Positions 1 to 11,641 of a DNA stretch of 27,674 nt are shown in pieces. Below the pieces are notes generated by a model. That model ran no database searches and was not told the DNA's origin. It worked only from the letters and a program-made list of their open reading frames with translations. The number at the start of each line of letters is the position of its first letter. Position 1 is the first letter of the stretch. The stretch is from a virus (taxonomy: Duplodnaviria; Heunggongvirae; Uroviricota; Caudoviricetes). The DNA is taken from IMG/VR virus record IMGVR_UViG_2799113139_000004; one strand, given 5' to 3'. The position numbers were made by a program, and so were the translations under genes.

Positions 1-1472
1 TTCTGGGCGAAGTTGCCACCGCCGGGCATGTTTTGCAGCTCGGCTTTGTGGGCGGGGTCGGCCATGTAGTGGCCTATCTTGTTGGCGACTTCGGCACCCT
101 CCTTGCTGTGGTCGCCAGCCCATTGAATGGCGTCATCGACCTTGCCGGACTGATCGCCGTACGGCTCTGCTAGGAGACCGCGGATGAACTTCTCACCCTC
201 GGTCGGTTCGCCGGTCACGATGGCATGAACGTCCGAATGATCTTGTGCGCCACTGTGATAGATGTCGGCCAGAGCGTTCGTCAGCGGGCCGTGAGCATCA
301 GAGATGATATGCGTGGGCAAGCCAGTGCGGCTGTCGATGTCGGCATTGCTGAAGGCGGTACCCGCTTCCAACATGGCCTTGCCCGCCTCCGAGCCGTTCA
401 GATAACCAGGGGAGGTGCCCTCGAAGATCTTGGCCACCTCCTGCAAGTCACCAACGCCATTGAGATGCACGTTAGGCAGACCCGCCTTGTCGGCTGCCGG
501 ACCAATACCTGGCGAGCTGACGGTCACCCAATCGCCGCGCGTCACCGCCTGACGGATGGAGTCGGGCAAGTTCGCGGCGCTACCCGCAGTCGGGATGAAG
601 GTGCCCTTGGTGTCATCAGTGACCCCACTGGCGTTGCTCACCCCCGACTTGATGTTCTTACTGGACACCAGCGCCAACCCATTACGCACGGCAGCCTGAT
701 CGGCCGGGTTCTTCAGTCCATTGATGATCTGGTCAATCTCAGTGCGAGACTTGCCATCTAAGGCTTGCGAGAGCTGATACAGGTATTGCATCCGGTTGGA
801 GGCGATGACGGTCGGCTTGCCGACCTGATCAGCGTCCAACGTGGCGGCAGCGCGCACCCGAGCAAGTACCGCTGGGTCGGACAAGTCACCGCTCGCTAGC
901 AGCACGCCATCGTTGTGACCGTTGGTGGAAGTCAGCTCAGCGACGGGGTTGAGCGAGATACCCAATTCGTCGGAGATGGCGTCGATCTGCTTGGCCACCT
1001 TCAGCTCGGCGCTCCACCATTTGTCATAGGCCGCCCGTAGTCGCTCGGTGAACCGAGCCGCGATGCGTTCACCATCGGCGATCGCGTCTGGGCGAGCGCG
1101 CGGTGGCACGATCCAGTCAACCTTCAAGTCCTCGGCCACGCTGTAGCCATTGCCGGTGTACTCCTCATACAGCTTGACGGCACGACTGTGAGCATCGATG
1201 ACTTCGAAGACAACCGCGTCCAGAGCGGCCGACGACTTGTCCTGAAGGTGTTGACCCGTCTGGTAAATCGTCTTCTCGTCGATACTCGCGGTCTCTTGAG
1301 CGGCGGAGGCTGACGCCCCGCTCCAAGGCTGTCCGCCGGGTAGGTCTATGGCGCGCTGATAGGTCTTACCCTCTTGCTGCAATTCAGCGCCAGTGAGCAC
1401 CGTCTGGCGAAGTGGGGACGCTACAGTTTCTTCGAGATGAGCGTTCAAGAGCAGCGTCAGTGACCGGGACAT
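1..1472 (-). CDS. ESX/type VII-secreted WXG-type protein, probable polymorphic toxin (3' end outside window, >490 aa)
   Basis: Absent from the ORF track because it has no stop in the window. Hand translation from ATG 1472 is open to base 1: MSRSLTLLLNAHLEETVASPLRQ...GGQPWSGASASAAQE...GNGYSVAEDLKVDW. W50-S-G52 and the G(F/Y)xVxED motif are typical of mycobacterial WXG-fusion N-termini. TGATG overlap with the upstream gene. Confidence 0.75.
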   Translation of the reverse strand, partial: MSRSLTLLLNAHLEETVASPLRQTVLTGAELQQEGKTYQRAIDLPGGQPWSGASASAAQETASIDEKTIYQTGQHLQDKSSAALDAVVFEVIDAHSRAVKLYEEYTGNGYSVAEDLKVDWIVPPRARPDAIADGERIAARFTERLRAAYDKWWSAELKVAKQIDAISDELGISLNPVAELTSTNGHNDGVLLASGDLSDPAVLARVRAAATLDADQVGKPTVIASNRMQYLYQLSQALDGKSRTEIDQIINGLKNPADQAAVRNGLALVSSKNIKSGVSNASGVTDDTKGTFIPTAGSAANLPDSIRQAVTRGDWVTVSSPGIGPAADKAGLPNVHLNGVGDLQEVAKIFEGTSPGYLNGSEAGKAMLEAGTAFSNADIDSRTGLPTHIISDAHGPLTNALADIYHSGAQDHSDVHAIVTGEPTEGEKFIRGLLAEPYGDQSGKVDDAIQWAGDHSKEGAEVANKIGHYMADPAHKAELQNMPGGGNFAQ

Positions 1473-1783
1473 CAGCGCATCCCTCGGGCCAACGGGGCCG
1501 TTGATTCGATCAACTGCGTGACGTGTTCCTCGGTGGCCGCCAGCCCGTGATGAAGCTGCACCGACCAGCCCGCCACGTTCCGGCAGCGCGCTGCAAACGT
1601 GCGCTGCACTCCCGGAATCGCTTCGGTCACCAGACGGTGCACCGCGATCTGTGTGGGTGTCGTATAGCCGCCAGCAGTGGCCGGATTGCCGGCCTTGCTC
1701 TCCAGCTTCACAGCCAGGTCATCCAGGTCTGGCGCGAGACGCGCCAGGGCTGCCATATCAACCTTCAACTGCTCATCAGACAT
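1472..1783 (-). CDS. Small ESX substrate-like helical protein (type VII secretion target / WXG100-like), 103 aa
   Basis: MSDEQLKVDMAALARLAPDLDDLA start resembles ESX partner proteins; ~100 aa, helical; RBS GAGGGGTGG; coupled to the downstream WXG gene. No canonical WxG. Confidence 0.55.
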   Translation of the reverse strand: MSDEQLKVDMAALARLAPDLDDLAVKLESKAGNPATAGGYTTPTQIAVHRLVTEAIPGVQRTFAARCRNVAGWSVQLHHGLAATEEHVTQLIESTAPLARGMR

Positions 1784-1811
1784 CGATCCACCCCTCGCCG
1801 ATTTGCCGAAA

Positions 1812-1817
1812 AGGCTA
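1812..1817 (-). promoter_or_regulatory. Candidate -10 box (TAGCCT) for the ESX gene pair
   Basis: TANNNT hexamer about 30 nt upstream of ATG 1783. Confidence 0.3.
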
Positions 1818-1859
1818 CACCGTGGACCGATGAGCTGCCACGCATTCGCGGCATAGCGG

Positions 1860-1932
1860 TGCCCCCTGTAGGGCTCGAACCTACGACCTACTGATTAAAA
1901 GTCAGCAGCTCTACCAACTGAGCTAAAGGGGC
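1860..1932 (-). tRNA. tRNA-Lys(TTT), divergent second copy
   Basis: Reverse complement GCCCCTTTAGCTCAGTTGGTAGAGCTGCTGACTTTTAATCAGTAGGTCGTAGGTTCGAGCCCTACAGGGGGCA folds as a cloverleaf; anticodon TTT; CCA not fully encoded. Confidence 0.93.
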
Positions 1933-1941
1933 GGCCCGCAT

Positions 1942-1947
1942 AGGCTA
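1942..1947 (-). promoter_or_regulatory. Candidate -10 box (TAGCCT) of the second tRNA-Lys
   Basis: TANNNT 9 nt upstream of the tRNA 5' end; the other tRNA-Lys has TATCCT at near-identical spacing (10828-10833). Confidence 0.45.
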
Positions 1948-2090
1948 TCTGATCCGAGCGCCCGCGAGACGCGCCAGGTAACCCCAGGGCTCTGACCTGC
2001 ATTGATCAAAATTCAAGTAAGCTACACTACAAGCTACAGTGACCCCGACAGCAAACCCAAAAATGCTGGTTCACGTGCGTAGATGGAAAA

Positions 2091-2645
2091 TCAGTTGAGA
2101 AGCAAACGCGGATTAAAAGTCCGCAGGATTGCGCAAAAGATCCGCAGATTCGCCAGCTGCCAGCCGCTCAGGCCCCAGTCGAGCCTGAGCGGAAGGCGGC
2201 ATAAGAGTCCGTAGTTTCCAGCCCAGACCGCGATCGGTGGTGCTGGCCTTATGGTCGGGCCTCGGCGACATAGGGTTCCATGATCACCACATCCGACGAA
2301 AATCCTTGGCGCCCAGCGCTTGTATCGGCCTCGGCGTGCGCTGGCGGTGCAGTGGGCGCAGGCACGACCCTTCCCGGGTGCGACGGATGGCTCGCTGCCG
2401 TCCTGCTCCACATCCAGCGTCCAGCCGTTGGCGCGGGTAGTGATGGTCATCGTGGTGTTCCCAGTGGGCTGGCCCAGCTCGGCCAGCGTGCCCGCCTGTG
2501 CGAGAGTGACTATCACGGCCAGACCCCAATCCTGCCCGCCGGATTGGCGCTTAAGGTCGGGGATATCCGGCGGCGTGGAACGCCACTTACCTGGGTCGGT
2601 GTCCATGAGGACCTTGCCGTCGACGGTGATCTTGATATTGCTCAT
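2091..2645 (-). CDS. Phage hypothetical protein; probably frameshifted, with the true end near 2249
   Basis: ATGA-type overlap with 2642..3040. The annotated frame crosses the att core; removing one G at 2368-2370 gives ...KVVPAPTAPPAHAEADTSAGRQGFSSDVVIMEPYVAEARP* ending at 2249. Confidence 0.6.
   Translation of the reverse strand: MSNIKITVDGKVLMDTDPGKWRSTPPDIPDLKRQSGGQDWGLAVIVTLAQAGTLAELGQPTGNTTMTITTRANGWTLDVEQDGSEPSVAPGKGRACAHCTASARRGRYKRWAPRIFVGCGDHGTLCRRGPTIRPAPPIAVWAGNYGLLCRLPLRLDWGLSGWQLANLRIFCAILRTFNPRLLLN
2108..2123. repeat. att core, left copy (GCGGATTAAAAGTCCG)
   Basis: Exact 16-bp match to 10775-10790, the anticodon arm of tRNA-Lys. Confidence 0.9.
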
Positions 2646-3040
2646 TGGGCTAGGAACTTTCGTAGTTGACGGGCATCGATCGTCACGTCGTCGGTCTTGC
2701 CGACCGTCAGCACCAACAAGGGCGTGGCGCGCTGGTGGTCGGTGCGGTCGTACAGCGTGACGATTCGGGTGCCGTCCGGCGCTTCTGCGGCGTCCTGGCG
2801 CAGCTGTGCCGCATCGGCTTTGGTGAGTACGTCGAATTCGCCATCGATGACCGACTCGATGGCCTCGGCCCAGAGCTTGGCGGCCTGGCCGATCATTTCC
2901 TGCGCTTGGTCTTCAGGCATACCGGTCGCCCGGAAGCCGGGAATCGGAATCACTCGTGCGGGACTGTTTGCGTTGCCGGGATGTTGAAGGGCTCCCGAAG
3001 CGAACGTGCGAGTGAGCAGGTCGACTAGGGATTGGTTCAC
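2642..3040 (-). CDS. Phage hypothetical protein, 132 aa
   Basis: Strong RBS AAAGGAGGG upstream of GTG; protein-like composition; coupled to the next gene. Confidence 0.8.
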   Translation of the reverse strand: MNQSLVDLLTRTFASGALQHPGNANSPARVIPIPGFRATGMPEDQAQEMIGQAAKLWAEAIESVIDGEFDVLTKADAAQLRQDAAEAPDGTRIVTLYDRTDHQRATPLLVLTVGKTDDVTIDARQLRKFLAQ

Positions 3041-3182
3041 AGCGCGTGTGCCCTCCTTTGGAGGCTGCCAGCGTTATGGCGGGGTCGCTCTGGCGACTGG
3101 CGGCCTGGCGTAAATGAACTGGCCAGTGCATAGTGAGAAGAAAGTCAGCAAAGTAGTGGTCATGTGCAAGGGAGGGGTTGCA

Positions 3183-3662
3183 GTGAGCGTTGGGCTGATG
3201 GCACTGACGCCGGTTGTGGTGGTGTTTGGCTATCTCGGTTGGCAATCGGCCCGCGGCGTCGGGCGCTGGGTGCTAGATCGTCGGCGCCGTGACGTTTCAA
3301 ATGCCGCCCTGGGATCCGAGTCGGAGGCCGGGGACGCCACAGGAATCTTTGATGGCAAACCTACTGGGCGGATTCGCGTGAAGAGTCAATCCGAATCCAG
3401 CTGGGAACTAGCGATAGAACCGATAGGTGACCATGTTCAGCTTCCTAGCGGCGACGATGCGCTCATCGAGTACGTGTTACCTGGTAGGCCGATGATCACT
3501 CGAGATGGTGTACCGGAGGTAATCGCTTACTCTGATCGCGGCATCGTTGTGTGCCTACCGCGATTCGACGAGTTCAGGGTCCTCAACAAGGCAGGCGAGA
3601 TACTCATTGAAGTCGGAACCATAGGGCCGAAGCCCAGGAGTAGTGACGAAAACCCCAGCTAG
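3183..3662 (+). CDS. Membrane-anchored hypothetical protein (cassette 1)
   Basis: GTG 3183 after GGGAGGGG (ORF track starts at 3114); N-terminal hydrophobic segment followed by RRRR; stop lies inside the hairpin. Confidence 0.7.
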   Translation: MSVGLMALTPVVVVFGYLGWQSARGVGRWVLDRRRRDVSNAALGSESEAGDATGIFDGKPTGRIRVKSQSESSWELAIEPIGDHVQLPSGDDALIEYVLPGRPMITRDGVPEVIAYSDRGIVVCLPRFDEFRVLNKAGEILIEVGTIGPKPRSSDENPS

Positions 3663-3674
3663 ACCGGGGTTTTC
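3648..3674. terminator. Hairpin, probable bidirectional terminator
   Basis: GAAAACCCC-agctagacc-GGGGTTTTC. Confidence 0.7.
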
Positions 3675-3822
3675 ATACGGTGGACATAGTTGTCCAGGTC
3701 AAGAGATTGCCCGCCCAGCGGCGTCTTGAGCTGGTGACCTACTGCCCGGCGTTGAGATTCTGGCCAGTCCATAATGAGAAGAACGTCAGCAAAGTGGCTG
3801 CCAGATGCAAGGAGTGGTTGCA

Positions 3823-4086
3823 GTGAGCATTGGGCTGATCGCGCTGACGCCGTTTGCGGTGTTACTCGGGTACCTCTGCTGGCAGTTAGTCCGCAAAGCG
3901 AGCCCTCGGGGGCCAGATCATGGCGGTCGTCGCGTTTCGGACGGTGCGCCTGGGTATAGCCCGGGAGCCGGGGCCGACACGGGAACCTTTGGCTTCTTCG
4001 GCGGATTCGGCGGAGGCAGTGGCGGCGGGTACTGCGACAGCGGCGGATTTAGTGACGGCGGTGGTGGGTGCGACGGCGGTAGCTGA
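3823..4086 (+). CDS. Small membrane protein with Gly-rich tail (cassette 2)
   Basis: GTG 3823 after AAGGAG; N-terminus MSIGLIALTPFAVLLGYLCWQ is paralogous to cassette 1; ends GGGSGGGYCDSGGFSDGGGGCDGGS. Confidence 0.7.
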   Translation: MSIGLIALTPFAVLLGYLCWQLVRKASPRGPDHGGRRVSDGAPGYSPGAGADTGTFGFFGGFGGGSGGGYCDSGGFSDGGGGCDGGS

Positions 4087-4107
4087 CCGCCAGAGCCTCG
4101 AAACGAC

Positions 4108-4134
4108 GAAAACCCCAGCTAGGCTGGGGTTTTC
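4108..4134. terminator. Perfect 12-bp hairpin, probable bidirectional terminator
   Basis: GAAAACCCCAGC-tag-GCTGGGGTTTTC between convergent genes. Confidence 0.8.
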
Positions 4135-4579
4135 ATGCGGTGGATATAGTTGTCCCACCGACATGTTGGGACTCATTTTGCCATACGTGCAGGTCAGGCC
4201 TGCGATATCGGCGCTTTCGCGTGTCGCGACGCCACAGGGTGTGCGCGGCCATGAGTGCTGAGGCCAGCGCTGGCGCGTCCTGCACGGGCAGCTTGTCGGG
4301 CACGTTGCGAATGGCCACCTGGTCGCCGTGCGGGCTGATGCGAACGGCGCCGTCAGACCATGGTTGTGCGGTGATCGGTACTCGGACATATTGCCGGCCG
4401 GACTCGTAGGTCTCGACCTCGGGTAGTGCGATGACCACGTGGCCCCTGGACTTGAGGGCGTCGGGCAGTATCGAGGCGACGATGTCGGCGACCTGCGCCT
4501 GCGTGTACACGATGGTCTCGGTCTGACCTTCGGCGCCGATGCTCTCGATGACCTCACGAATGGCCTTCCGGGCGTCCAT
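4133..4579 (-). CDS. Phage hypothetical protein; 3' end possibly frameshifted
   Basis: MDARKAIREVIESI... is protein-like. The tail runs into the terminator; one extra A at 4215-4217 would give ...DTRKAPISQA* ending at 4194. Confidence 0.65.
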   Translation of the reverse strand: MDARKAIREVIESIGAEGQTETIVYTQAQVADIVASILPDALKSRGHVVIALPEVETYESGRQYVRVPITAQPWSDGAVRISPHGDQVAIRNVPDKLPVQDAPALASALMAAHTLWRRDTRKRRYRRPDLHVWQNESQHVGGTTISTA

Positions 4580-4870
4580 GGGCGAGTTCTACGCCGAGAG
4601 TCCGACATGACGGCTAGATCGCGGGCAGAAGATGAAGATCTGGCGAACACGGTCCGACCCGCCGAGCGAGACGTGGCGTCCCATGGTCGATGTTGCTCCA
4701 AGATCGCGGTACCGCGCGAGGGTCTTCATGCTGTGTCTACCAGCGGAGATGCAAGCCCGTGCTGAAGTGGCTAACTCTTTAGCTGGGGTTTTCTCGACAT
4801 GGCAACCATATGTGTGTAATGATCTGCCCAGGGGCGCGTTCAGCGTCGGCTGAAAGGGGCGGTTGTATTC

Positions 4871-6055
4871 ATGGTCATGAAGGAGCGTTGGACGATGCCA
4901 GCGGGTTTGCGGCGAGCCTCGGCGCTGGTGGCAATTGTCGCTTTGGCTGTCGGTGGAGCGAAGGTTATCGACGGCCACACCGTCGCTGGTAGCGGCTTTT
5001 CGGCGGTCGCGACCGTGGCAGCTGATCCCACTGGCGGCCCAACAGGCGGGCCTGGCAGCGGGCCCGGAGGAATGAATGGAAGTCAGTTTCAGCCACCTTC
5101 TGCGCCTCAGCAGATGCCCGACTATCAGGGTGGAAACAACTTGCCGCCGCTAGATCAGAATGGCGGAATCAGCATCTATAACAGCGGGGTTCAAGGTGCC
5201 CCGCAACAGGCGCCGGGTGAGCAAAGCGCGCAACAGCCTCAGCAGGGCTGGGATCAGCCCGCTCATGGGAATCAGATTCCTGACTATCAAACGAATCCCG
5301 GGTTCACCCAAGGCCCCGGTAAGCCCAACCCGGACGCTCAAGCGCCTCAGCAAGGCAACCAGCCTCAGCAGGGTCAGCAGCAGCCGAGTCAAGCCCCGAC
5401 ACAACAGCAGCAGCCGGGGCAGGAGCGCGATAGTGATCGAATTCGGGATTTCTCCGAGAGGTGCAGTCTGGCGTCTGATGTGCTGCAGTCGGGAAGTGTG
5501 CCGGTCTCGCTGATCGGTGCGGCAGGGGGCGCCTTGGTGAATGCGCGCCTCGAGCCTGGTCGGGACCCGAGTATTCCGATTTGCCCGGACTGTAACCCAC
5601 CGGTTCTTAAGCAATTCACTGATGGGGACAATCCGCTGGATCAGTTGTGGCGGGATGTGCTCAAAAAGTACGTCGACGAGAAGATGGATGAAGCCAAAGA
5701 AGAGGCCATTGACAGTGCTTTGGAGCCGTTGAAGAAGTGGCTCTCGGAGAACTCGACGGCGGACTGCGGTATCACCTCATGCTCGGTCTATTTCCACAAG
5801 AACGTAACGAAGTGGCTTAAGGACAACGCAGCACTTACTGCTCTTGCTCCGGCGGTAAGCGGCTATATCCTGTGCACTGTCGTCGGCGCTAAAACTAACG
5901 CGTATGTGGGTGGCGCATGCGGATTGGCGAATACCGCCAGCTGGGCTTTTCTTATCAATGCCATCAACCGTGCGGGCGACGGCACTGGTTGCCTGCGCGT
6001 GCGTGCGGGTATCCCTGCCGGGTATTACGCTGATCATTCGGGGTTCTGTGTATGA
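4871..6055 (+). CDS. Exported P/Q-rich protein with PDYQGG/PPLDQN module and Cys-containing hydrophobic C-terminal domain, 394 aa
   Basis: Hydrophobic signal (RRASALVAIVALAVGGA), VAA-DP candidate cleavage site, module shared with 23449..25605, Q-rich linker. Confidence 0.85.
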   Translation: MVMKERWTMPAGLRRASALVAIVALAVGGAKVIDGHTVAGSGFSAVATVAADPTGGPTGGPGSGPGGMNGSQFQPPSAPQQMPDYQGGNNLPPLDQNGGISIYNSGVQGAPQQAPGEQSAQQPQQGWDQPAHGNQIPDYQTNPGFTQGPGKPNPDAQAPQQGNQPQQGQQQPSQAPTQQQQPGQERDSDRIRDFSERCSLASDVLQSGSVPVSLIGAAGGALVNARLEPGRDPSIPICPDCNPPVLKQFTDGDNPLDQLWRDVLKKYVDEKMDEAKEEAIDSALEPLKKWLSENSTADCGITSCSVYFHKNVTKWLKDNAALTALAPAVSGYILCTVVGAKTNAYVGGACGLANTASWAFLINAINRAGDGTGCLRVRAGIPAGYYADHSGFCV

Positions 6056-6489
6056 GCAAGCAGCTTATGAGGAGATATGCCGTCGCGTTTGGTGCCGTGG
6101 CCGTGCTGGTGGGATGCTCCGCCCCCGAAGAGGGTGCGGGGGAAGTCCCTGCGGTAGAGAAGGCCGTCCGGGGGTATGTTGAGGCCTATAACAGCGGGGA
6201 CGTTCAGCGGTATCTAGGTTCGATGTGCCCAAGCCTGAGGGATTCGCGTGTAGCAAAAACAAGATCGCCCGACCGAGATTTGAAGGATGCTCTTGTTCAG
6301 GATGGGGCGATGGCCCTCGACTCCATCACCGATGTTCACCTGGAATCGTCAACCAAGGCCACTGCGCTGGTTCAAATTCGCTACGCCAATGATGAGAAAA
6401 ACGGCGGTACCGGCGCCTTTCCGCAGAAGCAGGTTTTTATTAAGGACGGTGACCGTTGGATGATCTGCACTGGGAAGACCGACGAGTAA
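6052..6489 (+). CDS. Lipoprotein, Rv0361/NTF2-like
   Basis: Lipobox LVGC; AVRGYVEAYNSGD..YLGSMC and final VFIKDGDRWMIC are NTF2-like; ATGA overlap with the upstream gene. Confidence 0.75.
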   Translation: MSKQLMRRYAVAFGAVAVLVGCSAPEEGAGEVPAVEKAVRGYVEAYNSGDVQRYLGSMCPSLRDSRVAKTRSPDRDLKDALVQDGAMALDSITDVHLESSTKATALVQIRYANDEKNGGTGAFPQKQVFIKDGDRWMICTGKTDE

Positions 6490-6493
6490 TAGA

Positions 6494-6676
6494 GTGCGTC
6501 AGATGGAGAAGAAAACCGCCCTCAAGCGCCTCACTCTTTTGAATAGTGCAATTGCCGCTGCGTGGTGGCTCACCTATCCGCTATTAGGCCTCAAAGGTGT
6601 GGTTATAGGCGAAATCGTTATCTTTGTGGTCACGGTGATCGCGGCCGTGTCGATCGAGAGAAAGATGGAACGCTGA
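6494..6676 (+). CDS. Small two-TM membrane protein, 60 aa
   Basis: Two hydrophobic stretches; fills the gap between neighbouring operon genes. Confidence 0.65.
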   Translation: MRQMEKKTALKRLTLLNSAIAAAWWLTYPLLGLKGVVIGEIVIFVVTVIAAVSIERKMER

Positions 6677-6678
6677 GA

Positions 6679-7260
6679 ATGTTTGCCAAGACCGGATCTT
6701 TGATCGCTGGGATGGTCGTACTCTCAGTAGCGGGATGCTCAAGCACGGAGCCATCAGGGACGGGCGCCACGACAGTCCGTACCTCCGTAGCGTCAGGTCC
6801 GGTGGATTTCGCAAAGATCCCGGGACAAATACCTGCTGAGGCGGAAATGACGCAGCAGGGAAGCGAAGAGGCGCCTATCGGAGCCTGCGTCTACCTCAAG
6901 GGAAAACCCGGCAGCGTCACGCTAAACAAAGTGGACTGTGACTCCCAAGATGCGAACTACCGTGTCATCCAGAGAGTCGGCTTCCCTGACCAATGCGTCA
7001 ACGACGCAGACCGACGATTCTACTTGGGCAGTCCGCAGGGCGAATGGACTGCCTGCATGGACTACGCATGGACGAGTGAGGGCTGCATCAGCGTCGCGCC
7101 GGACAAGGTTGTCCGGGCCGAATGTGATGACAAAAATCTGCCGAACCGAGAACGGCCAATAACGATCTTATTCAATACGATTGATACCAGCCGCTGTCTT
7201 TTCGGCGGGTTTGCACATCCGGTGCGCCGGTTCACGGTATGTACGGAGACCCAGAAGTAG
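6679..7260 (+). CDS. LppU-family lipoprotein
   Basis: ATG 6679; lipobox VAGC; Cys pattern GACV..KVDC..ANYRV..QC..TACMD..GC..EC..C..FTVC. Confidence 0.8.
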   Translation: MFAKTGSLIAGMVVLSVAGCSSTEPSGTGATTVRTSVASGPVDFAKIPGQIPAEAEMTQQGSEEAPIGACVYLKGKPGSVTLNKVDCDSQDANYRVIQRVGFPDQCVNDADRRFYLGSPQGEWTACMDYAWTSEGCISVAPDKVVRAECDDKNLPNRERPITILFNTIDTSRCLFGGFAHPVRRFTVCTETQK

Positions 7261-7270
7261 CCTGTCATGT

Positions 7271-8066
7271 GTGGCTGATGGTGTAGCTCAGCGGCGGTGG
7301 ACCGCTGACGAGCTGGCAGTGGCGCTGGACCGGTCACTATCGTGCGCCGAGGCTGGCGCGAGGTTGGGCCGCACCCGGCTACAGGTGGAGAAGGCTCGAA
7401 AGCGGTACCGGGGACGCGATATTGAGCAACTGCTCGCCCAGAAACGTGGTCGCGCTGCCGAGCTAGAGCAGGTAGCCGAGACCGACATCGCCTGCTATGG
7501 GTCATGGACACCACAGGAGATCGCGATCGCACTGGATCGGTCGATTTCCCGCACTGAAGCGGCCCGCCGGTTGGGGCGTTCCTTCAGGGCGATCAAGCAC
7601 ATTCGAGACCTGCAGCGCCAAAAGGCCTCGGGTTTGATCCCGGCGCGCGAGTCGCGCGCGGAGCCGATACGGCAGCGCCTCTGGACCGAGGATGAGATCG
7701 CTGTCCTGGCCGATGAGTCCCGCACACCTACGGAGATTGCCGCCTTCGATCAATTCGGTCACTGTGGCTCGTGCGCGGTGGCTGGGGCGCTTGCAGGGCA
7801 AGGTCCCTGAACATCTGCACGGAACCAACACGGGCGTGAGCCGATACGGATGCCTATGTCCGCGGTGCCGGGACGCGGCCGAAGCAGAGCGGGAGCGACG
7901 CCAAGAGGCCACCCGGCACACGGCGGTCAACTACAAGGCGCCCTGGACCGACAGCGATATCGAGATCGCGCTAGATCGCAACCTGACCGTGATTGAGGCC
8001 GCCCAGCGCTTGGGACGAACCCACAGCGCGGTGCGTGCGCTGCGATACAAGTACCGAGACTCCTGA
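7271..8066 (+). pseudogene. Phage protein with four Myb/HTH-like repeats, frameshifted near 7745
   Basis: Repeats WTxxE..ALDRS.S..EAA.RLGR occur in ORF 7181..7810 (two complete, third broken after EIAA) and continue in ORF 7692..8066 (SINSV...CLCPRC...WTDSDIEIALDRN). Confidence 0.75.
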
Positions 8067-8131
8067 TTGCCGTTGGGCACGAGGTCACCGACGTACGCGT
8101 TAGGGAACTTGTCGCGTGGTGGGCGTGCCAT
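7931..8131 (-). CDS. Possible phage gene fragment (MARPPRDKFPNAYVGDLVPNG...)
   Basis: Its ATG follows the same 22-bp motif as gene 4579, at the same spacing; the 3' part is antisense to the HTH-repeat gene. Confidence 0.3.
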   Translation of the reverse strand: MARPPRDKFPNAYVGDLVPNGNQESRYLYRSARTALWVRPKRWAASITVRLRSSAISISLSVQGAL

Positions 8132-8202
8132 GTTCTGGTTCTACGCCGAGGGTCTGACACATTTGCTACGTTCACGTGATGGTTGAAGTTAGGGGTGCGG
8201 AA

Positions 8203-8847
8203 ATGACTTCGATTTCGAATGAAACCGAAGATGAAAGGGCAGCCAAGGCTGGCATACGGATGCTTACAGGAATTGGCGGGTTAATCCTGCTGTTTGCCTT
8301 GGCGAATCTGGACTACGTTCCGCGCATCATTCGTTTCAAACAAGTCCACCCTGATCTGTTCTGGTGGACTGCGGCGATAACCGGCATAAACGCGGCGATC
8401 ATCCTGCTCGCGGCTGTCGTTCTATGGAACTGCCCGCCTCGACCACTGATACCCGACAATCGACTTACGGTGCGGGTGAAGCAGATTGCGAAATTCTTGG
8501 TCGGCGCCACGACCTTCGGACTCGCTGCCTTCTGGGGAGCCCTAGCTGGCGCCATGATGCCTTCGCCTGAGAAGGGCGTCACGCACGATGAGATGAATCA
8601 TCTTCTAGGCCAGATCGTGGGTGAGCCATTGAAGTTCATGACCATGCTGGCGTTAGTGGGAATGGTCCTAGCACTTTGTTTGGATCTCTACGTGGTGGGT
8701 CGAGAACGTCGAAAATCTATATTTAGAGGGCTACGCCCCGTGCTGGCGTGGCTTTGCACGCAACTGACATCACCGCGGGTGATCGGCACCGTGTCTTATC
8801 TGTCGCTGGCGATGATCACCTGGTGCGGCACGCTCCCACGCACCTAG
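8203..8847 (+). CDS. Multi-pass membrane protein
   Basis: About five hydrophobic segments; start may be 8176 or 8203. Confidence 0.75.
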   Translation: MTSISNETEDERAAKAGIRMLTGIGGLILLFALANLDYVPRIIRFKQVHPDLFWWTAAITGINAAIILLAAVVLWNCPPRPLIPDNRLTVRVKQIAKFLVGATTFGLAAFWGALAGAMMPSPEKGVTHDEMNHLLGQIVGEPLKFMTMLALVGMVLALCLDLYVVGRERRKSIFRGLRPVLAWLCTQLTSPRVIGTVSYLSLAMITWCGTLPRT

Positions 8848-8925
8848 TCGGCTTCAATGCCAATTCTGAATTTCCCCTAAATATGCATACGGCCTGACGG
8901 CGCCAGTGTAAGTATCACGGCAAAT

Positions 8926-9444
8926 ATGGTTCGTGGGGGATCTGAAATGGAAGGCGGCACAATGGAACGCGAGCGCAGGCTACAGGCAGGACATTGGTAT
9001 CTGGTAGCCGATGAGCACGGGCAGGCCGATATCCGGGCTTACATGGATGACGGGTGGTATCCCCTCACCCCCGAGCCGAAGTACGCCGTATGTGAGATGA
9101 GCAGATCACACCACCCGGACAACGTTGACCCCATCGTTGATTCGGCCGATGATGTGGAAGTGCCCGAATCTGATCAGGCCATTATCGAGCACCACTATCC
9201 CATCGCTATTTCCGGTTCGCCCGTATCGAAACTGGTGTGGGTCTTCGCAGAGCGAATCTCAAGGGCAAACGGGGCCGATTGGGAAGACCTCGACAGCCGC
9301 GCAAACTACTTGGCGATCTCCACTGGTTTCATCAAGCAGGCGCAAGACAACACCAATCCGCCTACCCCGCCAATGCTAGGCGTCTTCCGGCCCAAGCGCT
9401 GGCCGATGAAAACTACGCCGCAGGAACCGGTTCCAGTTGGCTAG
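8926..9444 (+). CDS. Hypothetical protein
   Basis: 172-aa ORF with protein-like composition; start uncertain (8926/8947/8962). Confidence 0.6.
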   Translation: MVRGGSEMEGGTMERERRLQAGHWYLVADEHGQADIRAYMDDGWYPLTPEPKYAVCEMSRSHHPDNVDPIVDSADDVEVPESDQAIIEHHYPIAISGSPVSKLVWVFAERISRANGADWEDLDSRANYLAISTGFIKQAQDNTNPPTPPMLGVFRPKRWPMKTTPQEPVPVG

Positions 9445-9468
9445 GCGTCGACCACGCCTTGAACACCT

Positions 9469-10514
9469 TTATGTGAGGCCCCTCGCGTTCCGTGGCCGCT
9501 CCGCCCGCACCGTGCGCACATCGCCAATGCGAACCATCTGGTGCCCCTGGGCGTCCCGGCCGCGCACCGGCACCCGCCCGCGTCTGATCCACCGCTCGAT
9601 GGTCGACTGCGGCACGTGCTCATCAAGGCGGGGGAGTATCACGTCGACGAGTTCGCGCACGGTCGCGTTGCGGTCGTCGAGCTCGCTAAGGTTGCGTGCC
9701 AGCACGTCGGCCACCGAATGCGCGGTGTCGCACTGGGGGCACACGATTGAGCCGCTGTGGCTCGGTGCCATGAGTGCGTATCCGCACCGGGTTGAGTTGT
9801 CGCCCTTGCGGCCCCGCTCGGCAAGCACCTCGTCGGGTGCCGGGTCGGTGATGCATGGTCCGATGATCATGGGCTCGGGTGGGCGGTTCACCACGCGTGT
9901 AATTGACCGGTACACCTGCTCGATCTCGTCGCAGATCTCGGCGCCGTTCTCCTGCAACGCGATATTGGCCGCGTGCCGGTGCAGCCACTTGGCCATGCGC
10001 GCCGTCGTCGCGATCGAATGCGTCTCGTCGCCGCGCCTTCCTGCGTAGATGACGCGCCAGTTTTCCGCGGAAAACTGGTCGAGTGCGCGCGTCTCCGGGG
10101 CGCCGTCGCAGTCGTCGCACAGCGGTCCGGCCGCCGAGGTGGGCAACGTGACGAAGCATCGTCGACACGAGCCCGCCCGGGCCGGCGGTGCCGAATCGAG
10201 GCTGAACCGATCTGCCGGTCGCCGTGCATCCGATTCGACGACCATCGGCAGAGGCCTTGGACTCGTGCGGAACTCGGGCACCTCCAGCCCGCGCGTCTCG
10301 CACATGTCGCGGATGGTCGTCGACAGCGCGTTGCGGATTCGGTCGAGCTCGTCGCTGGCGCGTCCGTTGACCCGGCCGAGTGCCAGGGCATGCCACAGTG
10401 CCCCCTGGTGCCTGTCCCGGTGGTCCCTCGCGGTCGGGGTGGTGTCCTTGTCGCGCGGGAACGGTTCGACGTGGCTCACGAGCGTGTCGTCGCCGTGCAG
10501 TACGTCGCGGCGCT
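9469..10514 (-). pseudogene. 5'-truncated phage regulator (Zn-ribbon plus C-terminal HTH)
   Basis: GPC...RCGYAL...IVCPQC and STIERWIRRG..VRIGDV resemble actinophage late regulators. The frame is open upstream of GTG 10479 (RRDVLHGDDTL) until a stop at the junction near 10514. Confidence 0.7.
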
Positions 10515-10793
10515 ATTTCGATCCGACTGAAGCAAGAGCTGGTTGCGTTGGGTCTATCGGTGAACAGGGCGGCCAAAGAGCTTGGTGTAAGCCAACCTTG
10601 GCTGTCACGCCGAACCCTCGGTGGCGTCCGATGGAAGGTGGAGGAGGTAGACGACATCTGCGACAAGCTCGGTCTTGATGCCAACTACACCCTCACCGGT
10701 TACCGCTCACTGCCTGACGGCGGTGACGACGGCGGTGCTGCTGGTGCCCCCACCAGGGCTCGAACCTGGGACCTGCGGATTAAAAGTCCGTAG
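10512..10793 (+). pseudogene. Prophage immunity repressor (HTH), 5' end deleted, reading through the att core
   Basis: AISIRLKQELVALGLSVNRAAKELGVSQPWLSRRTLGGVRWKVEEVDDICDKLGLD is an XRE-like HTH; it ends GAPTRARTWDLRIKSP* antisense to the tRNA. No start codon or RBS. Confidence 0.8.
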
Positions 10794-10817
10794 CTCTACC
10801 AACTGAGCTATAGGGGC
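10742..10817 (-). tRNA. tRNA-Lys(TTT)
   Basis: GCCCCTATAGCTCAGTTGGTAGAGCTACGGACTTTTAATCCGCAGGTCCCAGGTTCGAGCCCTGGTGGGGGCACCA; CCA encoded. Confidence 0.97.
10775..10790. repeat. att core, right copy
   Basis: Identical to 2108-2123. Confidence 0.9.
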
Positions 10818-10956
10818 GTGCCGAGACAGGATACTGGTCGAGTGTGCGCGCGAGCACCGAGGTTATCCGGTTTGGGTTCTGAGGCAGTTGTGCCCTAAGC
10901 TGGGCGAGCTCCCAACGCGACACGCGTTGTGGGTACCCCGGAGAGATTCGGAACGG

Positions 10957-11029
10957 GCCCCCATCGTCTAGTGGCCTAGGACGCCGCCCTTTCACGGCGG
11001 TAGCACGGGTTCGAATCCCGTTGGGGGTA
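10957..11029 (+). tRNA. tRNA-Glu(TTC)
   Basis: Cloverleaf; anticodon arm CCGCC-CTTTCAC-GGCGG. Confidence 0.97.
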
Positions 11030-11058
11030 CGCAACCAGTCATACTGGGAGCAGAGTAA

Positions 11059-11135
11059 GGCCCTGTGGCGCAGTTGGTTAGCGCGCCGCCCTGTCACGGC
11101 GGAGGTCGCGGGTTCGAGTCCCGTCAGGGTCGCCA
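11059..11135 (+). tRNA. tRNA-Asp(GTC)
   Basis: Cloverleaf; anticodon arm CCGCC-CTGTCAC-GGCGG; CCA encoded. Confidence 0.97.
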
Positions 11136-11171
11136 GTACGGCGAGGCAGTAAGTAGTTGGGTCTGCCGTCC

Positions 11172-11248
11172 GGCCAGGTAGCTCAGTTGGTACGAGCGTC
11201 CGCCTGAAAAGCGGAAGGTCGCCGGTTCGATCCCGGCCCTGGCCACCA
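11172..11248 (+). tRNA. tRNA-Phe(GAA)
   Basis: Cloverleaf; loop CTGAAAA; CCA encoded. Confidence 0.97.
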
Positions 11249-11249
11249 T

Positions 11250-11276
11250 AAAACCACCTGATAGCGGGTGGTTTTT
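11250..11276 (+). terminator. Intrinsic terminator of the Glu-Asp-Phe tRNA operon
   Basis: AAAACCACC-tgatagcg-GGTGGTTTTT. Confidence 0.85.
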
Positions 11277-11641
11277 CTCGTTTCTGGGGCGGGTGCTCGG
11301 AAGCGTGAATCTGGCCATCTGGCAGCTACGCGTCGATCGGGAAGTAAGGAACGGCTGAGGCTGTAACTCACGTGAGGCGCCATGCGTCGGTTTCCGAGAC
11401 CACTGAAACGCCAGCTCGGGCCGGATGCTTCGATTCCGGGGAAACCGCGTCGAGCTCAAGACGAATTGCGCGCTCCCCGAAAACGCTTCTCCTTGTGATC
11501 GGTAGCACGCGTCATGGGACAGTGTGGATAGAGAAGAGAAGGGACGTTACGCACCCCGCGGACGGCGGTGAGCACTGGTCGGGACGACACAGAACCGCAC
11601 CACACTATGGCGATCCCTGACCTGACGGGAAGGGCGGACAG

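Follow-up and report, generated by a model that had tools for sequence, protein, structure and literature searches.

Probable remains of an integration-dependent immunity switch at tRNA-Lys(UUU) in a decayed MabC-like prophage

Positions 2108-2204 of the window (the whole stretch of viral DNA analysed here, 27,674 nucleotides, IMG/VR record IMGVR_UViG_2799113139_000004) very probably represent the phage side of the left junction formed by an ancient phage, MabC-like and with integration-dependent immunity at tRNA-Lys(UUU). As judged from the DNA, attP lay inside the repressor gene, the stop codon of the prophage form is supplied by the host, the tRNA gene was rebuilt upon integration, an integrase gene follows the repressor in relatives, and a C-terminal -AA is conserved. 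The mechanism as such is not new: it is textbook knowledge in mycobacteriophages and has been catalogued in Mycobacterium abscessus, and no new principle emerges from the locus. The new elements are modest, namely a MabC-like backbone with an immunity module aimed at tRNA-Lys, a fixed remnant in genome G001 (the nearest genome compared, whose coordinates match those published for the M. abscessus type strain ATCC 19977) and the re-use of the att sites of this remnant.

A repressor gene divided between two att cores

The elements of the proposed switch are located in the window as follows:

2108-2123, plus strand: left att core, 16 bp; extended through 2125 it forms the 18 bp held in common with the attL of prophiFSQJ01-1
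2124-2204, plus strand: last 26 codons and TAA of the repressor gene in its virion form, now orphaned; they adjoin the body in L022 and L023
10513-10790, plus strand: repressor body, XRE-type HTH, 5'-truncated; the final 49 bp run antisense to the 3' half of tRNA-Lys
10742-10817, minus strand: tRNA-Lys(UUU), the attB gene, intact, with a phage-derived 3' half
10775-10790, plus strand: right att core, equal to the anticodon stem-loop of tRNA-Lys(UUU)
10791-10793, plus strand: TAG stop of the prophage-form repressor; its T is the first host-specific base, where attP has CAG (Gln)

A search of the window recovered the 16-bp core GCGGATTAAAAGTCCG in two exact copies (2108-2123 and 10775-10790, both on the plus strand) and no third match at up to two mismatches, with 0.01 expected from shuffles. 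An XRE-type HTH reading frame on the plus strand matches Pfam HTH_31 as well as phrog_2328, annotated as "transcriptional repressor", and the latter match covers only profile positions 10-107 of 128, so that the C-terminus is missing. The frame passes through the antisense of the tRNA 3' half and ends ...GAPTRARTWDLRIKSP, with ...TWDLRIKSP followed by TAG at 10791-10793. Reading of this ORF confirms the original prediction that the repressor remnant ends RIKSP-TAG at 10793, with the stop just past the core. Continued from the left core, the same frame occupies 2124-2201 as QDCAKDPQIRQLPAAQAPVEPERKAA, a tail of 26 aa ending -RKAA, and is closed by TAA at 2202-2204; that the joined cores lead into such a tail had likewise been predicted and is confirmed. 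There is no in-frame start codon between the stop at 2040-2042 and the tail, which is therefore untranslated from the left flank.

Two tRNA-Lys(UUU) genes are present in the window, both on the minus strand (1858-1932 and 10742-10817), the second of them adjoined by tRNA-Glu, tRNA-Asp and tRNA-Phe. G001 contains 2108-11300 at 100% identity, with a remnant of 8.6 kb, and the tRNA-Lys(UUU) of 10742-10817 is the sole tRNA-Lys(UUU)-like match found in that genome. The displaced 3' half of the host tRNA-Lys was located at the attL of G001.

Natural genes in which body and tail are joined provide the main evidence that the two halves belong together. A protein search with the repressor body retrieved P0001, a 152-aa protein of M. 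abscessus with 96% amino-acid identity to the body, and in its contig (L022) the body runs directly into the tail QDCAKDPQIRQLPAAQAPVEPERKVA as a single gene. A Phage_integrase gene begins 43 bp past the repressor stop and is followed by a WXG100 and polymorphic-toxin cassette, and upstream of the repressor lie a divergent cro-like HTH gene (84 aa) and an antirepressor. The halves of the window joined at the core differ from the L022 DNA by few substitutions, and the similarity stops about 12 bp past the stop codon. In a second contig, L023, a body identical to that of the window is followed by a diverged tail, QEWVEDPQIRRLPVFPVPVEPERIAA (...EPERIAA), in which frame and stop position are unchanged. 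The tails of L023 and the window differ at 24 of 81 nt without any indel; eight codon changes are synonymous and ten non-synonymous, and in the PVEPER block all three changes are synonymous. Judged from this alignment, the substitutions follow a coding pattern.

The claims that attP lay inside the repressor, that integration took place at tRNA-Lys and that the halves now lie 8.6 kb apart are thus borne out by natural contigs carrying body and tail beside an integrase; L022 and L023 carry the same joined form as the attP that was built in silico and compared with relatives, as the original prediction had proposed. L022 and L023 might be tandem-prophage junctions instead of free attP, in which case the natural reading from body into tail would still stand. 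The attP core of L022 (L022:2898-4394) has ATA, not AAA, as the anticodon-loop codon (RIISP vs RIKSP), and this codon also varies in several other full-length members of the family (I, S, T or N).

The same comparison bears on the opposite strand. Positions 2108-2204 are spanned by a minus-strand ORF, and one might assign them to a minus-strand gene (the 184-aa ORF at 2091-2645, or an N-terminal extension of Mab_0771c) and the plus-strand reading for an accident, the more so as the frame stays open in G001 for 641 aa into an MFS transporter gene. However, the phage family match of the ORF at 2091-2645 is confined to residues 1-82 (phrog_1385, full length 83), and the remainder runs over the deletion joint and antisense to both the tail and the tRNA half, whereas on the plus strand L022 and L023 carry repressor and tail without a break, and the substitutions in the tail follow a coding pattern. 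We regard the minus-strand explanation as extremely improbable and reject the ORF as a real gene; its first 82 aa are a phage domain and the rest is read-through over the deletion joint.

A perfect inverted repeat around 7 nt had also been predicted. It is indeed present in the halves joined at the core (CCTGCGGA-TTAAAAG-TCCGCAGG), but consists mostly of the tRNA anticodon stem-loop: the anticodon arm of the tRNA accounts for the inner 5 bp as well as for the 7-nt loop, and only the outer 3 bp, where attB reads TCCGTAGC, are specific to attP. An identical perfect repeat occurs in the natural joined forms, in L023 and, with the ATA loop, in L022; the attP of phage IdentityCrisis (MN234184), which was compared, is without the extended 8-bp inverted repeat.

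The favoured reading of a divided repressor gene implies the following history. In the free phage the repressor gene would have spanned attP, its last ~16 codons ahead of the crossover (GAPTRARTWDLRIKSP) being the antisense of the tRNA 3' half, with a 26-codon tail ending -KAA past the crossover and a tyrosine integrase gene just downstream. Crossover within the anticodon stem-loop would have put the repressor body beside the tRNA 5' half, and the first host base at the junction would have changed CAG to TAG, resulting in a shorter, untagged repressor. Tail and int would have been carried to the far end of the prophage.

The tRNA-Lys(UUU) at 10742-10817 has, as in G001, an A27·C43 mismatch at the top of the anticodon stem. 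It was considered as a scar of the host/phage chimera and rejected as such, the displaced host half in G001 likewise having C43; the mismatch appears to be native and not a product of integration. The displaced half in G001 has a run of four C, compared with five in the functional gene.

The repressor family and its C-terminal tails

Hits to the repressor body share an invariant GAPTRARTWDLRI block in their alignment, dictated by the tRNA 3' half. Fifteen are prophage forms ending DLRIKSP, for which the tRNA supplies the stop, and fourteen are full-length forms, whose tails of 4-26 aa are otherwise unrelated and end in -AA in all but two cases (12/14). These proteins define a tRNA-Lys-aimed repressor family with an invariant, tRNA-dictated block, variable tails and an -AA ending almost always. 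P0002, which ends -ALP, appears to be frame-shifted. The -AA ending has exceptions: the tail of the closest intact relative, L022, ends -KVA, and the integrase of the same contig ends -VVA. The expectation that relatives conserve both the frame and the terminal AA is thus upheld for frame and stop in L022 and L023 and for the AA in 12 of the 14 full-length forms, but not for the AA in the closest of them. The Int-like ORF of L023 ends -VAG, and the tmRNA tag of G001 is ADSHQRDYALAA, which ends -ALAA.

The same design is known from the mycobacteriophages BPs, Brujita and Charlie (Clusters G, I1, N and P; Broussard et al. 2013, reviewed in PMC9262239). Shared with these are an attP inside the repressor gene, an attB overlapping the 3' half of a tRNA gene, a host base beside the common core that makes the stop codon, a virion form with a C-terminal -AA tail, and an int gene directly downstream (here in the relative L022). 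The remnant differs from them in its tRNA target, Lys-UUU, in the sequences of repressor and tail, and in being a decayed locus without int, cro and the repressor start, for which degradation is predicted only.

IdentityCrisis, in which integration-dependent immunity is already annotated at tRNA-Lys, offers a more distant parallel aimed at the same tRNA block. Its gp36 is annotated as immunity repressor and its gp34 as tyrosine integrase, in the order repressor then integrase as in our family, although the integrase gene starts 90 bp past the repressor stop instead of 43 bp as in L022. The tRNA-Lys-derived block DGGAAGAPTRARTWDLRIKSP at the crossover is common to this phage and the remnant. 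The HTH body of gp36 is only ~41-45% identical, and the phage infects M. smegmatis; gp36 ends ...DLRIKSPLESPFASVELEAA, with a tail of 13 aa that terminates in -EAA and is unrelated in sequence to that of the remnant, and the adjoining tyrosine integrase ends -RAA.

Integration-dependent immunity has been published for M. abscessus prophages (PMC8092301, PMC9934374) and catalogued for six of their clusters; tRNA-Lys is absent from the six sites listed (PMC8092301). The MabB and MabC records (prophiGD21-1, prophiGD43A-3, prophiCCUG48898T-1; PMC8092301) annotate the split repressor as two misc_features, and the annotated MabB tail of prophiGD21-1 ends DPDRIAA, resembling the EPERKAA of the window tail. 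MabC phages integrate at attB-12 and attB-13, neither of which is a tRNA site, and have repressors without -AA tags (PMC8092301), in contrast to the remnant, whose immunity and integration module is a different one aimed at tRNA-Lys. No paper that presents the remnant as what is left of a tRNA-Lys prophage with integration-dependent immunity came up in a literature search.

Analogy to BPs, Brujita and the MabB prophages suggests a tail that keeps the virion-form repressor inactive until it is lost upon integration. The 26-aa tail is a putative ssrA-like degradation tag, and we infer from the same analogy that it would send the virion form to Clp-type proteolysis, so that immunity would arise only after integration.

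An alternative is that the tail frame has been kept mainly as attP DNA (core-type or accessory sites for the integrase, int upstream sequence) and that the peptide is no degradation signal. Several observations point in this direction. The motif TCCGCAG occurs at 2120-2126 and again at 2141-2147, the second copy 21 bp past the core, and GATCCGCAGATTCG, the part of the tail that repeats the TCCGCAG of the core-type site, is identical in the otherwise diverged tail of L023. Furthermore, Dedrick et al. report several integration-dependent repressors of M. abscessus without -AA tags, and the L022 tail ends -VA. Constraints on attP as DNA could thus account for part of the conservation in the tail. 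As a main explanation we consider them unlikely: -AA closes 12 of the 14 otherwise unrelated tails, the changes between the window and L023 in the C-terminal PVEPER block are all synonymous, the tail stop codon is at the same position in both, and integration-dependent immunity systems need no arm-type sites (PMC9262239).

Decay of the remnant

The interior of the remnant consists of two elements:

2205-2216, plus strand: end of the spacer between repressor and integrase genes, and first deletion joint (at ~2213-2216)
2214-10513, no strand assigned: surviving internal segment of a MabC-like prophage, the reverse of ~11.4-18.8 kb in prophiCCUG48898T-1

The HNH endonuclease gene known from MabC-type prophages can be recognised by its 5' end from 2214 onwards, and window 2214-10514 is co-linear, in reverse, with intact prophages of this type, corresponding to 18,799 down to 11,410 of prophiCCUG48898T-1. 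The backbone of the remnant is ~91% identical to MabC prophages. The left end of the segment lies 57 bp inside the HNH endonuclease gene and the right end 163 bp inside gene 24, which encodes a 415-aa HTH protein; the homologue of gene 24 in the window (9469-10479, minus strand) is without its 5' end and joined to the repressor, the second deletion joint being at ~10511-10514.

This arrangement implies two deletions. The first, of ~31 kb, begins ~10 bp past the tail stop and took the integrase gene together with the toxin cassette and all genes for lysis, virion structure and terminase. The second, of ~11 kb, ends within the 5' end of the repressor and took cro, the antirepressor, RecET, replication genes and the repressor start with ~17 codons and the promoter region. 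The match between the window and L022 begins at AISIRLKQ, ahead of which P0001 has MTTLVLVDSPRGRSRDE, and this start codon with its ~17 codons is missing from the remnant repressor. No integrase is recognisable in 2108-10790, and the cro-like gene and control region beside the repressor, which are present in L022, are absent from the window (deleted). A promoter scan 5' of the truncated repressor yielded no site, which is weak evidence as the scan covered the sigma-70 consensus only.

Since the deletions removed int, cro and the repressor start, the switch is a fossil that cannot operate alone. The original prediction that excision would add the tail to the repressor is true of the sequence, but the locus is dead, lacking an integrase, a start codon and ~17 codons.

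We also considered whether the switch could be partly alive, with a 137-aa ORF expressed from the GTG at 10380 and giving immunity, and with an integrase acting in trans to recombine the cores and re-tag the repressor. The frame is open from this GTG, the strain of the window has three direct copies of the core, and the in-frame fusion of the remnant body to the tail of another phage in L023 means that att sites of the remnant have been re-used. Against this stand the deletion of the native start, of 17 codons and of the entire rep-cro control region, the lack of a promoter-like site 5' of the truncated repressor in the sigma-70 consensus scan, and the lack of an integrase in the remnant, for which prophiFSQJ01-1 or a superinfecting phage would have to serve as the source. 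Residual activity of this kind appears very unlikely, and we retain the reading of the locus as a fossil.

The reading of the remnant has some practical value. With it, G001 can be annotated as carrying, at tRNA-Lys, 8.6 kb of a decayed integration-dependent prophage, and, for the use of such a repressor as a selectable immunity marker, it implies that the truncated form must be cloned.

The left flank and later use of the att sites

Two further elements lie to the left of the tail:

1858-1932, minus strand: second tRNA-Lys(UUU), divergent and complete, carried by prophiFSQJ01-1 and outside the repressor switch
1933-2107, plus strand: probable left arm of the prophiFSQJ01-1 attP, missing from G001 at this locus

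After simple integration the tRNA 3' half would be expected left of 2108, but it is absent there. G001 has a regular attL, consisting of host DNA, the tRNA 3' half TGGTGCCCCACCAGGGCTCGAACCTGGGACCT, the core and the tail, without an insertion of prophiFSQJ01-1. In contrast, prophiFSQJ01-1 (BK061312, cluster MabR) accounts for window 1-1905, which matches its right end at 100% identity; the record of this prophage opens with the displaced tRNA half, followed by the core and by CATATAATTCC. A simple attL at 2108 was rejected, as the left flank is not the tRNA 3' half and prophiFSQJ01-1 is inserted in comparison with G001. The insertion of prophiFSQJ01-1 into the attL of the remnant explains why no tRNA 3' half is found left of 2108. 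This 67.7-kb MabR prophage inserted later into the same core in the strain of the window, and the core at 2108 is a hybrid junction, in which the right junction of prophiFSQJ01-1 is fused to the phage-side half of the remnant attL.

Cote et al. place the attR of prophiFSQJ01-1 within its own tRNA-Lys, ending at window 1905, and give its target as "attB-23 in Mab_0771c" (PMC9434293). The true right junction is probably at 2108, which would make the published end (1905) ~200 bp short. Three lines of evidence lead to this junction and to a phage-borne tRNA-Lys at 1858-1932: the comparison with G001, the exact 18-bp repeat GCGGATTAAAAGTCCGCA, which is found at the left end of the prophiFSQJ01-1 record and at window 2108 and bounds the insertion relative to G001, and the paired AAGCTACA repeats. 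Two direct copies of AAGCTACA at 2019 and 2031 mirror two copies in the other arm, so that pairs lie ~80 bp left and ~110 bp right of the core, and the motif was found nowhere else in the sequences examined. The left arm of prophiFSQJ01-1 is not tRNA-like, as for a short core in a tRNA gene without rebuilding of the tRNA. A blastn search with 1933-2123, the predicted attP region of prophiFSQJ01-1, against phage records gave no match.

The published "attB-23", into which the MabR phage prophiFSQJ01-1 inserted, is the attL of the remnant with its pseudo-tRNA half and orphan tail, which explains the odd location of this site inside Mab_0771c. The 641-aa frame of G001 (L004:113-2038, minus strand) runs from the phrog_1385 gene through the antisense tail and tRNA half into the MFS transporter, for which a separate start (MTSTAENTT...) exists to the left of the att site; the chance-open 641-aa frame is probably the reason for the placement inside Mab_0771c.

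With a short core and a complete, phage-borne tRNA-Lys(UUU) 175 bp from it, prophiFSQJ01-1 resembles the systems of tRNA-dependent lysogeny (PMC10865867). Its integrase shares ~36% identity with the integrases of Cluster L phages, in which lysogeny is of this mode. Because prophiFSQJ01-1 sits in the pseudo-tRNA of the remnant attL, no essential tRNA is disrupted in this strain.

The other end of the remnant has apparently also received an incoming phage. L023 (L023:202-693; GCA_017175815.1, M. abscessus; 6.7 kb seen) has a 5'-truncated body with a deletion joint identical to that of the window, and its in-frame fusion of body and tail is followed by two small ORFs and an integrase. This arrangement is consistent, on sequence grounds, with a second integration-dependent phage inserted in the attR of the remnant.

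Re-use of the att junctions of one integration-dependent prophage by another phage has been described for the tandem prophages prophiT36-2a/b (PMC9934374), in a study that likewise rebuilt attP in silico from 3' repressor remnants. That case involves two intact prophages, whose repressors use different reading frames across the core, whereas the resident here is a dead remnant. The incomers differ as well: that of the window belongs to MabR and has a conventional repressor, and that of L023 has its tail in frame with the dead repressor. The authors of the T36 study argued that an in-frame foreign tail would be lethal to a live prophage (PMC9934374). If in-frame re-tagging also hits a live resident, the degron of the incomer would destabilise the resident repressor, which would be a route to displace immunity or to induce a competitor. 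That the att sites of the remnant are still live recombination targets shaping later lysogeny is a minor possibility, to which we assign a small though not negligible chance.

The tRNA-Lys attB is an integration hot spot. In a 95-kb viral record (G002) this tRNA-Lys site is occupied by a prophage of ~77 kb, and the 53-bp repeats on either side of it have exactly the sequence of window 10741-10793 (G002:8907-9433 and 86399-86451). This prophage has its own tRNA cluster, the tRNA-Lys of which is 96% identical to window 1858-1932. The latter gene also shares 96% identity with tRNA-Lys genes from a dozen phages of Gordonia terrae, among them Vendetta and Splinter, and 90.5% with those of Cluster L mycobacteriophages, and these identities suggest that the gene moves among phages of different actinobacterial hosts.

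At the right end of prophiFSQJ01-1, window 1472-1783 (minus strand) encodes a WXG-100 family protein, and a large WXG-100 motif protein encoded at this end extends beyond the edge of the window. This pair is a polymorphic toxin cassette typical of M. abscessus prophage ends.
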